Sequence record: NC_047740.1
Strand: one strand, 5' to 3'
DNA length: 43,017 nt
Source: Enterobacteria phage phiJLA23
The position numbers and the translations under genes were made by a program. Shown here piece by piece: positions 10,501 to 22,127 of this stretch (position 1 is its first letter; the number at the start of each line of letters is the position of its first letter). Below the pieces are notes generated by a model. That model saw nothing but the letters and a program-made list of their open reading frames with translations. It was not told the DNA's origin and ran no database searches.

Positions 10501-10602
10501 TGCCGCCTGTTCATTGGCACGTTTAAATTCTTGCAGGGACTTTGTGCCCTGGTCAACCTGGCGAACGTCAACGCCAAGTGTGATACCTGCAAATTCTGCC
10601 AT
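7549..10602 (-). CDS. Tail tape measure protein
   Basis: About 1017 aa, Ala/Gln/Glu-rich helical body with Gly-rich C-terminal region; RBS ggagg 4 nt before ATG 10602 (ORF track starts at 10629 on a non-ATG codon). Confidence 0.85.
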   Translation of the reverse strand: MAEFAGITLGVDVRQVDQGTKSLQEFKRANEQAAAGVSEFVNAELVAKNQARDTARYLSEQRSAFQSLQSAIDPTASKLRKLQDAASSLDKAFSAGVVPEAEFYRLGEALETQTNRLIRSRSALTEEGRAAIEAAKNKESAERQAQSFIRSLQAQADAATLSRDEFLKLRAAQLGVSDQAAPIIDRITQASSNNTNAIANQSRAFQAAGISAGQYNQALRFLPVQINDITSSIANGMPLFMVLTQQIPQITDSFGGFSNTLSAAQGAVIDYVSSIGELRSLFADVKTLGDEAILRFGRAATIFGGAIVASLAVLGKAAYDSFIEVRQLNNAIIETGRSSTLSVAAIKDYADQLNETSRATKGSIGDIYQSLVSNGRLTVSQINLIAKSVANLSAVSSRSAESIISDFDKIAKDPVKGLIELDKQFNFLSEGQLTLVNNLKETEGQTAAVTAALEIFAARNESVTKQIEGSLTPLELAWGDFRKFVSDTWDAIGDRTIGALNLFTDVIAATIEQIRLIIGTGDKLINDFVIRGIEALQKIPGASGVGNGIAEQLRKDNDAIEKENIRLAKSIADRDARVRRGETGYLSVGEGSESQTGTSDRDSESRRKALADEIKAIEERSKKTKSGAKEERDLTISYESGVLALQAQLKVLQEHRQISDVISNERKQLFAEEAKFAILNERLADGTITKQQRSLLLQQDKILGLAREKAEIGDQIVLQERANKLLDDNIKKTRQINAEAASISVGAGLSQREAERRRELAALEAQQISKGGSVDDTDFQALLQARQNFYNQEDALRGNWLAGVKSAFAETADELANFNQIGSELAMSAFNGLTDQITNLVTTGEASFREFTASILKQIARIATQLLLIKAIESTISSFGGSGGAIGSIGSAFGFASGGYTGNGGKYEPAGTVHKGEFVFTKEATSRIGVDNLYKLMRGYANGGVVGAGPGYATGGLVGGSNVNVGGVNVTVQTGLGGGGGNDAKQLESGIRVIIAEEITQSFQQGGTAYQFLRGYS

Positions 10603-10616
10603 GTAACCTCCATAAA

Positions 10617-10640
10617 AAAACCTCCACAAAGGGAGGTTAT
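10617..10640 (-). terminator. Hairpin + U-run between chaperone GT and tape measure genes
   Basis: Minus strand reads cctccctttgtggagg then ttttttt, immediately before the tape measure RBS. Confidence 0.4.
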
Positions 10641-10996
10641 TTTTGCCTTACTTGCATCATCTCAAGTGCTTTGCACTCCAGTATTCGCAAGTCATTTAAA
10701 GTCATCTCTTTGTCCTTGACATTATACACATCAAAGAGGAAAGGGAGTACTGAATAATCTATTCCGGTAGCGCCGTTCATACCTACACGCCATTGAGTTG
10801 AAGCTGCCTGATAAACAGTCCATGCCAGCATCATGTCATCATCGAAGTGTAACTCCTCTGGCTCCTCATCTTCGTAATCGGAACGCCGCATTCCAATGGC
10901 TTCAAGTTCGGCGTCCGTTGGCTCTCTTTGATACTGTAGATATACTGCGCGCTTTAGACCTTTGCGCGCTGGCCCGCCAGAGCTTGCATGTAAGCA
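10637..10996 (-). CDS. Tail assembly chaperone T portion (-1 frame extension of G; G-T fusion by programmed frameshift)
   Basis: The -1 frame is open from 10996, overlapping the last 14 codons of G, to stop at 10637; conserved G/GT arrangement before the tape measure gene; candidate slip site GCA AAG G. Confidence 0.55.
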   Translation of the reverse strand, partial: CLHASSGGPARKGLKRAVYLQYQREPTDAELEAIGMRRSDYEDEEPEELHFDDDMMLAWTVYQAASTQWRVGMNGATGIDYSVLPFLFDVYNVKDKEMTLNDLRILECKALEMMQVRQK

Positions 10997-11268
10997 TTAG
11001 TCAGTGCCAGAACGGATGCGGGGAACAGAGATACCAGCTCTTCGATGTTCTCGTCGTTAAATTCTTCTTCAAGGTTCCAGCCGCTGCAAATCTCTTTAAC
11101 AAAGTCAAAATCCTTAAGGCCTTCGGTCTGGAATACTTCCTGAATCTCCTTAGCCTTACGGTGCTTGGCATTGAAGATAACCTCAGCTTCCTCGCCGTTG
11201 ATCATCTGGAACTTAACCGGAAGCTTGAAATCAGGGAGCGCGCCTAATTTTAATTTGAATTTCGCCAT
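10954..11268 (-). CDS. Tail assembly chaperone (lambda G-like)
   Basis: 104 aa acidic protein between major tail and tape measure genes; RBS gagagga; downstream -1 frame open. Confidence 0.65.
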   Translation of the reverse strand: MAKFKLKLGALPDFKLPVKFQMINGEEAEVIFNAKHRKAKEIQEVFQTEGLKDFDFVKEICSGWNLEEEFNDENIEELVSLFPASVLALTNAYMQALAGQRAKV

Positions 11269-11301
11269 TTAAATAATCCTCTCGTGTTTGTTTGAGTTGA
11301 A

Positions 11302-11336
11302 ATTATAACATAAAAAAAGCCCCTGTGAAGGGGCTT
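11302..11336 (-). terminator. Terminator after major tail gene (hairpin gcccctgtgaaggggc, T7) followed by TATAAT -10-like box
   Basis: Minus strand: gccccttcacaggggc ttttttt atgt TATAAT, then RBS and G start. Confidence 0.6.
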
Positions 11337-11341
11337 GATTG

Positions 11342-11992
11342 TTATGCAGCCAGGAAGCTATAGCGTCCACGTACCGTAATTGCTACGGATACAGTTTCGA
11401 TCTCGTTAACGGAAACGTTTGGAGTTTCGTTAAACGCGATAGTGCCAGTCCAAAGTCGAACTTCGCCAGCTTTAGGAACGTATGCACGAATCGCAATCAG
11501 CGCGCCAGACTCGTCGTAGTTACGGAGTACCGGGTAGATCGGGTTGGTGAACTCGTGAGCAAACGTATAGGTCGTGTTTACCGCTGACTTATAAGTTGGA
11601 ATCTGCTGCTCACGGTCATCAGCCAGGCACTGATAAGTAACGAACTGCTGCTCTCCGCCATCAGTTGAAACGTCTTGAACACAAGGCATTTCATACCAGG
11701 TAAGAACCTTGTAGATCGATGCCGTTCCGCCAGCTGGGAACTGAAGCGGGTCAGTAGTGTCAATGCCTTCAACGGTAATTGTTGTATCCGTTGATGTAAC
11801 TACTCGCAACTGTTTCTCTGAAAGTTTAGACCATGAAGATGACTCAACAACAATGAAGTCACCAGCTGCGAAAGTTGAAGCGTCAGCTACCGTCATAACT
11901 GGCTGAGCTGCGTTAGTGATAGCCGTTACGGCTACCGATTCAGATTTAGAGCCTTGCAAAAAAATTTGTGTGCCATTGCTGAGATGGGCCAT
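11342..11992 (-). CDS. Major tail protein
   Basis: 216 aa immediately upstream of G/GT; strong RBS aaggag 6 nt before ATG; positional call. Confidence 0.65.
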   Translation of the reverse strand: MAHLSNGTQIFLQGSKSESVAVTAITNAAQPVMTVADASTFAAGDFIVVESSSWSKLSEKQLRVVTSTDTTITVEGIDTTDPLQFPAGGTASIYKVLTWYEMPCVQDVSTDGGEQQFVTYQCLADDREQQIPTYKSAVNTTYTFAHEFTNPIYPVLRNYDESGALIAIRAYVPKAGEVRLWTGTIAFNETPNVSVNEIETVSVAITVRGRYSFLAA

Positions 11993-22051: not shown

Positions 22052-22127
22052 TGGTGTTCCGCACTGGACTCGAACCAGTAACTGAGACTTAGGAGGTCTC
22101 TGCGTTATCCTGTTACGCCAGCAGAAC
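22052..22127 (-). tRNA. tRNA-Arg (anticodon CCU), CCA encoded
   Basis: Manual cloverleaf: acceptor GTTCTGC/GCGGAAC (one G-U), U8, D-stem GCGT/ACGC with A14 G18 G19, anticodon stem GAGAC/GTCTC, loop CTCCTAA, T-arm ACTGG-TTCGAGT-CCAGT, discriminator A, CCA. Confidence 0.7.

Follow-up and report, generated by a model that had tools for sequence, protein, structure and literature searches.

In bacteriophage lambda the tail assembly chaperone gpG and its frameshifted extension gpGT are made in a fusion-to-short ratio of about 1:30 (PMC5009743); a summary of the studies of this frameshift (Levin 1993; Xu, Hendrix & Duda 2004, 2013) is given in PMC5009743. The minimal site for a -1 shift is a Z_ZZN tetramer, and such tetramers, when no stimulator accompanies them, shift at about 0.15%, barely above the background in reporters (PMC4066793). 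In E. coli the tetramer that shifts most readily is A_AA.G, which reaches 5.6% with the IS3 pseudoknot, and A_AAA is the lowest of the six active tetramers (PMC4066793). The efficiency of A_AAG is a consequence of the poor pairing of the single E. coli tRNA-Lys(UUU) with a G in the third position (PMC4066793, PMC5009743). Slip sites that do not conform to XXXYYYZ are common among the annotated frameshifts of phage chaperone genes (PMC10885494). Within the T1-like phages a frameshift has been mentioned for Skenny (PMC6763657), and a G-T-type fusion produced at a locus that lacks a classical site was proposed for Rogue1 by Kropinski et al. 2012 (PMC3496638).

The window analysed here is a 43,017-nucleotide stretch of DNA from Enterobacteria phage phiJLA23 (NC_047740.1), for which a G/GT arrangement with a programmed -1 frameshift had been predicted. 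Comparison of this locus with those of related phages leads us to consider it likely that a programmed -1 frameshift at the tetramer A_AAG in the tail chaperone gene of Rogunavirus yields a G-T fusion. The proposal of a frameshift at this locus is a rediscovery of the idea published for Rogue1. The present analysis locates the slip site by homology and traces it back to A_AAA_AAC, with phage Sd1 as an intermediate. It also provides evidence that 62 nucleotides considered intergenic are coding, and shows that no 3' stimulator is detectable.

Organization of the locus

The segment between positions 10600 and 11400 is 100% identical to the corresponding regions of Escherichia phages vB_EcoS_AKS96, C119 and JK06, and 99.1% identical to that of Rogue1. 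All four phages belong to the genus Rogunavirus, subfamily Rogunavirinae, family Drexlerviridae (T1-like siphoviruses). The locus is located on the minus strand, and Pfam and PHROG profiles defined the gene order PF08813 -> PF08748 -> PF08809 -> PF06791/PF09718, in which two small ORFs lie between the major tail and tape measure genes, as they do in the lambda paradigm (Table 1). The first of these ORFs, named G, was also matched by phrog_569 and phrog_17368. The latter profile has 213 positions, of which the first half matches G and the second half matches the downstream frame, named T. Since phrog_17368 spans both, fused products are already present in the databases. The putative sigma-70 promoter found upstream of G would drive the expression of G and GT.

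The original prediction had equated this arrangement to that of lambda G and G-T. The synteny and the frame geometry are indeed those of lambda, but the proteins, with their PF08748 and PF08809 domains, are not lambda homologues by sequence: a Pfam scan of G and T (E <= 0.01) gave only these two families and no match to a lambda G or T family. A sequence search of G and the T frame against solved structures gave no matches. The window G and T can therefore be considered analogues of lambda gpG and gpT that share no detectable sequence homology with them. None of the known frameshift elements was matched in an Rfam scan of 10600-11300 (E <= 10), which gave only chance matches, most of them to the terminator.

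Table 1. Features of the tail chaperone locus of the window (all on the minus strand).
Feature	Position	Strand	Basis and remarks
Major tail protein gene	11992..11342	-	PF08813
Terminator-like hairpin after the major tail gene	11336-11317	-	Terminator annotated there in the AKS96 record
Putative sigma-70 promoter	11329-11302	-	11/12 match; overlaps the major-tail terminator hairpin; promoter annotated there in the AKS96 record
G-type tail assembly chaperone ORF, 104 aa	11268..10954	-	ATG 11268 to TAA 10956-10954; Phage_TAC_4 PF08748, E 6e-37
Overlap where the shift must fall, 14 codons	10954..10996	-	Upstream bound TAA 10999-10997, downstream bound the G stop
Weak SD-like UGGCGGG	10973..10979	-	9 nt 5' of the slip site; -5.3 kcal/mol when paired with the 3' end of 16S rRNA
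6-bp GCGCGC/GCGCGC hairpin	10947..10969	-	MFE fold of 11000-10870; slip site and G stop lie in the loop
Proposed -1 slip site A_AAG	10960..10963	-	Lys103 AAG 10962-10960 preceded by A10963; re-pairing on AAA 10963-10961
T part of the predicted GT fusion, 107 aa	10637..10960	-	-1 frame, GGU 10960-10958 to TAA 10639-10637; DUF1799 PF08809, E 3e-13
'Intergenic' spacer, coding in the -1 frame as KRAVYLQYQREPTDAELEAIG	10892..10953	-	No start codon inside; substitution pattern
Hairpin flanking ATG 10891	10917-10879	-	Fold; 43 nt downstream of the slip site
ATG of the separately annotated 84-aa ORF, probably internal Met127 of GT	10889..10891	-	SD energy, alignment
Terminator-like hairpin and T-run	10619..10638	-	Overlaps the T stop, upstream of tape measure ATG 10602; terminators annotated there in the AKS96 record
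Tape measure protein gene	from ATG 10602	-	PF06791, PF09718

The overlap and the slip site

The T frame is -1 relative to G and remains open from 10996, immediately after its upstream limit, to its stop codon. The coordinates predicted for this frame, 10996 to 10637 with an overlap of the last 14 codons of G, were confirmed, and in all informative relatives the -1 frame extends 311-329 nt beyond the G stop. The first ATG, GTG or TTG in this frame is ATG 10891, so that, as in the lambda paradigm, the conserved N-terminal part of the second ORF has neither a start codon nor an RBS of its own. Chance alone could well produce an open frame of about 35 codons (with a probability roughly estimated at about 0.15-0.2), and therefore the geometry by itself is weak evidence; the significance of the arrangement comes from homology and substitution patterns.

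A systematic scan of the overlap, the kind of frameshift-site prediction that had been suggested as a check, found no in-frame X_XXY_YYZ heptamer, as had been claimed, and only two in-frame Z_ZZN tetramers, namely G_GGC (10975-10972) and A_AAG. A slippery sequence that permits re-pairing of tRNA-Lys is thus present as a tetramer and not as a heptamer. Because the P-site codon GCA is unable to re-pair on CGC, a shift at this point would not be a tandem slip. The site coincides with the GCA-AAG-G that had been singled out as the only plausible one, and it falls at the exact codon where relatives have A_AAA_AAC. The description of the slip site as atypical is overstated, since A_AAG is the best-characterised E. 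coli tetramer (PMC4066793, PMC5009743).

Comparison with related phages

The locus was compared with those of 16 annotated Drexlerviridae and with 80 IMG/VR loci, and motifs were counted on 78 informative related loci (L016-L095 minus L051 and L064). The codon located two before the G stop is a Lys codon preceded by A in every informative locus. Most of the family, T1 (L053) included, has A_AAA_AAC abutting the stop in the form N NNA AAA AAC TAA/TGA (51 of the 78 loci). A second form, GCA AAA GTY (or GCC) TAA, with A_AAA_G, is found in Webervirus (24/78), and the third, GCA AAG GTC TAA, with A_AAG_G, in Rogunavirus and Eastlansingvirus (3/78, plus the window and L001-L004). The window has GCA AAG GTC TAA where the majority has A_AAA_AAC next to the G stop. 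Shigella phage Sd1 (L096), another member of the Rogunavirinae with 90% DNA identity, reads GCA AAA AAC TAA at the same place. As the heptamer is kept in Sd1 and is shared by the majority of the family, the window motif must be the derived one, which arose recently from the family heptamer via three substitutions (AAAAAAC -> AAAGGTC). Some relatives have runs of 6-8 A, in which transcriptional slippage is conceivable.

The G and T proteins of the window are homologous to those of the other Drexlerviridae, their slip codons correspond in position, and the predicted fusions align gaplessly over the junction, marked here by a slash (window ...AGQRAK/GLKRAVYLQYQ, relatives ...AGQRVKN/LKRAVYL). Residues K103, L105, R107, A108, V109 and L111 show little or no variation in this alignment. 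Joined CDSs have been annotated in OzMSK, KOX1 and KLPN1, and their lengths equal those of the predicted fusions. Taken together, the sequences document a turnover within the family, from heptamer and hairpin (T1-type) to heptamer alone (Sd1 and its neighbours) to bare tetramer (Rogunavirus). Webervirus would represent a parallel change of the motif, the predicted recoded protein being conserved throughout.

The region between the G stop codon and ATG 10891

The 62 nucleotides that separate the G stop codon from ATG 10891 show the substitution pattern of a coding sequence in the -1 frame. Among 47 distinct family sequences, columns at codon positions 1, 2 and 3 of this frame have mean entropies of 0.64, 0.55 and 1.39, respectively. 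The pN/pS ratio is 0.33 in this frame, and about 1.5 when either of the others is read. Of the 10 columns that vary within the Rogunavirinae (8 sequences), 9 correspond to third positions of the -1 frame, with a pN/pS of 0.08. Although no start codon lies within them, these 21 codons behave as coding sequence when read in the -1 frame. In the 119-amino-acid translation of this frame, where Met 10891 is residue 36, the match to phrog_680 begins at residue 22 and that to phrog_17368 at residue 5, and thus both reach into the spacer, upstream of ATG 10891.

Stimulatory elements

In reporters, tetramer sites need a stimulator, either an SD-like element located upstream or a structure located downstream, to rise above background. 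In relatives of the T1 and Tempevirinae types a strong hairpin, GGGCGGUUU...AAACCGCCC, is found 6-7 nt after the heptamer, with an energy of -15 to -19.6 kcal/mol and z between -3 and -4.8; heptamer and hairpin make up a textbook cassette for frameshifting. Family-wide, 72% of the cells are paired versus 36-49% in slid controls, a figure that was obtained with a structure derived from the same sequences and that lends this hairpin moderate support. The 58 nt downstream of the site in the window group have energies of -3.9 to -6.1 kcal/mol and z of +1.0 to +1.9, i.e., they fold more weakly than shuffles, and a hand count on the alignment indicates that about 5 of the 12 pairs of the T1-type hairpin can form in the window register. 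Three regions of the window were folded (10959-10860, 10956-10900 and 11000-10870); they gave no hairpin at stimulatory spacing, the stable one expected 6-7 nt 3' of the slip site included, and the MFE of the 57-100 nt downstream was weaker than that of shuffles (z +1.1 to +1.9). A crude, home-made search for stems and H-type pseudoknots, with 300 dinucleotide shuffles, found nothing between 3 and 12 nt from the slip site that beats chance, so that the 'downstream pseudoknot' claimed for Rogue1 (PMC3496638) was not reproduced by this search.

Upstream of the slip site, the SD-like UGGCGGG is a possible stimulator and the only candidate. G-rich Ala-Gly codons of this kind are found family-wide and are inseparable from protein constraint. 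The GCGCGC/GCGCGC hairpin is absent from T1-type relatives and, as its loop holds the slip site, it cannot exist while the ribosome decodes AAG. Since no 3' stimulator was detected, and since bare tetramers remain near background in reporters, the efficiency of the A_AAG slip is probably low. This expectation is the main weakness of the frameshift model. By analogy with lambda, a low efficiency would be compatible with a chaperone isoform that is needed in small amounts.

Rogunavirus has thus lost the heptamer and the hairpin, and its T-frame spacer is still under strong purifying selection. One may speculate, at rather long odds, that the bare A_AAG works with an unrecognised stimulator and supplies enough GT, or else that a shift toward a T initiated independently at the in-frame ATG is under way. 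The upstream UGGCGGG, a nascent-chain effect and the local context are candidates for such a stimulator.

Possible initiation at ATG 10891 and other alternatives

The anti-SD duplex energy at ATG 10891 is -0.2 kcal/mol, compared with -5.8 for G, -10.0 for the tape measure gene and -9.2 kcal/mol for the major tail gene. This value is weaker than those at 75% of all ATG triplets on the minus strand, and no independent RBS for ATG 10891 was found by anti-SD duplex energy. The ATG is kept in the Rogunavirinae and their nearest relatives (L016-L024, L005, L015), the aligned codon being Leu or Phe in most relatives, and an in-frame ATG is confined to lineages that lack the T1-type hairpin. It also adjoins the 3' arm of the sole stable local hairpin. 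G and T are annotated as separate CDSs in all Rogunavirus GenBank records checked, and in none of them are they joined.

This distribution of the ATG is what would be expected if initiation at this codon partially compensated for a weakened frameshift signal, with GT made at a low level by frameshift and free T made by weak SD-independent initiation. We regard the operation of both routes as unlikely. ATG 10891 is devoid of an RBS, and the co-occurrence of the ATG with the loss of the hairpin apparently took place in a single clade and has no statistical weight. We know of no function for a free T.

It is highly unlikely that there is no frameshift at all, that the 84-amino-acid T is made alone from ATG 10891 and that the open -1 frame upstream is an ancestral relic. 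The conservation of the ATG in the Rogunavirinae and nearest relatives would agree with this explanation, as would the lack of the T1-type hairpin in these lineages and, in Rogunavirus, of the heptamer as well, the start of the Pfam DUF1799 model at about Met 10891, the mention of an 'independent RBS' for the T part by the annotators of OzMSK, and the listing of two CDSs in the GenBank records. A relic, however, would drift and gain stop codons, and the 21 upstream codons are under purifying selection within the Rogunavirinae, as seen in their pN/pS and in the position of their variable columns. The missing SD, the adjoining hairpin arm and the Leu or Phe found at this codon in most of the family also speak against a start at ATG 10891, and in the lambda paradigm T acts while tethered to G (PMC5009743).

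A third explanation, extremely improbable, is a shift elsewhere in the overlap or transcriptional slippage. The latter was rejected for the window, where only three consecutive A are present at the site, too few for the polymerase to slip. With respect to the former, G_GGC is the sole other in-frame Z_ZZN tetramer of the overlap, but it was rejected because G_GG.N tetramers are not shift-prone in E. coli (PMC4066793) and the motif is not conserved: relatives read GCA GGC, GCC GGA or GCT GGT, and the residues conserved between 10975 and 10963 are those of the 0 frame (AGQRxK) rather than those of the -1 frame.

Proposed mechanism

According to the model of a frameshift at A_AAG, most ribosomes would make the 104-amino-acid G and stop at TAA 10956-10954. 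In a minority of them the tRNA-Lys on AAG 10962-10960 would slip back by one base and re-pair on AAA 10963-10961; these ribosomes would then read GGU-CUA-AAG, pass over the G stop and continue as far as TAA 10639-10637. The predicted product is a 210-amino-acid GT fusion that consists of residues 1-103 of G followed by 107 residues with the DUF1799 domain, and MQALAGQRAKGLKRAVY is the chymotryptic peptide predicted to span its junction. If the paradigm of lambda gpG and gpGT (PMC5009743) applies, coating of the tape measure protein would be the role of the G part and recruitment of the major tail protein that of the T part, and GT would be needed in small amounts. Placing the slip at A_AAG within the 14-codon overlap is our own deduction from the relatives, as is the occurrence of the slippage. 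We found no experimental demonstration of the fusion protein in the literature on T1, Rogue1 and AKS96. G and T are not reported in the virion proteomics of AKS96/AHP24, which is expected of a chaperone and hence uninformative.

A G-T fusion made in this way would call for the re-annotation of roughly 25-30 Rogunavirus and Eastlansingvirus genomes, with a joined 210-amino-acid product that has its slip at A_AAG. These records now show two separate CDSs, named 'tape measure chaperone' or 'hypothetical', with the 62 coding bases as intergenic. Sd1, which has the heptamer, and Rogue1/AKS96, which have the tetramer, are about 90% identical and could serve as a natural experiment on the need of a siphovirus tail for GT. 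The locus illustrates how a frameshift signal is turned over among the phages of a single family and leaves the understanding of tail assembly and of frameshifting unchanged; it is an ordinary, expected phage feature with a modest evolutionary twist.

Comparison with known systems

The window locus resembles lambda gpG/gpGT in that two ORFs are located between the major tail and tape measure genes, the second of them in the -1 frame, overlapping the 3' end of the first and lacking its own start. In lambda the slip involves tRNA-Lys on AAG near the G stop, as it would in the window, and neither has a known strong stimulator (PMC5009743). They differ in that lambda has a tandem site, G_GGA_AAG, of which the window has only the A-site half, A_AAG, able to re-pair. 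The lambda fusion was shown experimentally whereas that of the window is predicted, and the Pfam families are different.

IS1222 (G_CGA_AAG), B. subtilis cdd (A_CGA_AAG) and the tetramers of the IS3 family share with the window a slip of a single tRNA-Lys from AAG to AAA, next to a P-site codon that is unable to re-pair (GCA in the window). Unlike the window, where there is only the weak UGGCGGG, they depend on an SD-like element upstream, on a structure downstream, or on both (PMC4066793, PMC5009743).

The cassette of the T1-like phages (T1, TLS-like, Tempevirinae) has homologous G and T, with 46-66% identity over the fusion, a slip codon two before the stop and the junction K-x-LKRAVYL. The window differs from it in having a tetramer, one sense codon between the slip site and the stop, and no hairpin. 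Sd1 (Wilsonroadvirus) has the same spacer protein sequence as the window and also lacks the hairpin, but it retains the canonical GCA AAA AAC TAA. The Webervirus phages (KLPN1/KOX1/KP36-like, GCA AAA GTY TAA) have the tetramer A_AAA instead of A_AAG, and a shorter hairpin, GGGCUG/CAGCCU, is possible downstream of it. As in the window, their tetramer is followed by a Val codon (GTY) and the stop, and the joined product is annotated in KLPN1 and KOX1.

Frameshift signals in related phages

The tail assembly chaperone loci of T1- and Tempevirinae-type relatives include a strong hairpin, GGGCGGUUU..CUG..CAG..AAACCGCCC, which starts 6-7 nt past the sequence A_AAA_AAC-UAA and has a predicted energy of -15 to -19.6 kcal/mol (z -3 to -4.8). 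Together, A_AAA_AAC-UAA and this hairpin make up a textbook -1 frameshift cassette, unannotated in most of the records inspected here. The locations of this and the other features discussed are listed in the table.

Features of the G-T region in the window and in related Drexlerviridae loci
Feature	Location	Strand	Remarks
T1-type hairpin	L053 (phage T1) 1507-1578; also L028-L049, L052-L057		
In-frame ATG at DUF1799 start	window 10889-10891; also L016-L024, L005, L015		
Hairpin CGGACGCCG / CGGCGUUCCG	window 10879-10917	minus	sole stable local hairpin
Terminator-like hairpin + T-run	window 11336-11317	minus	3' of the major tail gene
Terminator-like hairpin + T-run	window 10638-10619	minus	overlaps the T stop
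Sigma-70 promoter (11/12 match)	within window 11302-11336	minus	TTCACA-16-TATAAT plus TG extension; overlaps the first terminator

Three related loci deviate in sequence or in annotation. In the PHB10-like locus L051 (IMGVR_UViG_3300025728_000347, ~1470-1560) the A-run at the slip site consists of 8 A, and therefore G and T form a single continuous 208-amino acid frame; the run is 7 A long in its relatives L065, L095, and L014. The eighth A could be an error in sequencing the homopolymer, or else G and T are naturally fused in frame in this phage, in which case it is the short form that would require slippage. The locus L064 (IMGVR_UViG_2706796530_000001) shows several frame switches in the G/T region and a G truncated to 57 amino acids, irregularities that probably reflect a low-quality assembly rather than biology. 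The G-T region of Klebsiella phage KLB26 (PP556865, 801-1429) was deposited as a misc_feature with the remark that 'intron boundaries' could not be determined; the frameshift site there is a plain A_AAA_AAC-TAA.

The ATG at 10891 and its local hairpin

An in-frame ATG at the point where the DUF1799 domain begins is confined to lineages without the T1-type hairpin; where that hairpin is present, the position is occupied by a Leu or Phe codon. As the ATG-bearing, hairpin-less lineages look like one clade, the correlation between the ATG and the loss of the hairpin carries no statistical weight. The window has a local hairpin of its own, located 43 nt 3' of the slip site, a distance too great for a classical frameshift stimulator. 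The ATG lies within its loop, adjoining the 3' arm, and the structure could impede initiation at this codon.

Transcription signals and tRNA gene

The G-T pair is flanked on both sides by terminator-like hairpins with T-runs, and the same terminator and promoter features are annotated around G-T in the AKS96 record. The bracketing terminators, together with the overlapping promoter, suggest that transcription is attenuated stepwise over the major tail gene, G/GT, and the tape measure gene.

Elsewhere, the window includes one tRNA-Arg gene (anticodon CCU; 22052-22127, minus strand). A single tRNA-Arg has likewise been reported for Rogue1, JK06, and AKS96-type phages (PMC3496638; PMC4070988).

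Replacement of the heptamer

The slip site reads GCA AAA GTY TAA in Webervirus (L067-L094) and GCA AAG GTC TAA in Rogunavirus, so that in both genera the AAC half of the heptamer is replaced by a GTY valine codon. On the sequences compared, the two changes appear to be independent of each other because the nearest relatives, L066 for Webervirus and Sd1 for Rogunavirus, keep AAC. Phage Sd1 (MF158042, ~935-946) belongs to the same subfamily as phiJLA23 and shares 90% DNA identity with it over this locus, yet its site is still the canonical GCA AAA AAC TAA, against GCA AAG GTC TAA in the window. The two phages thus constitute a natural strain pair for the comparison of heptamer and tetramer.
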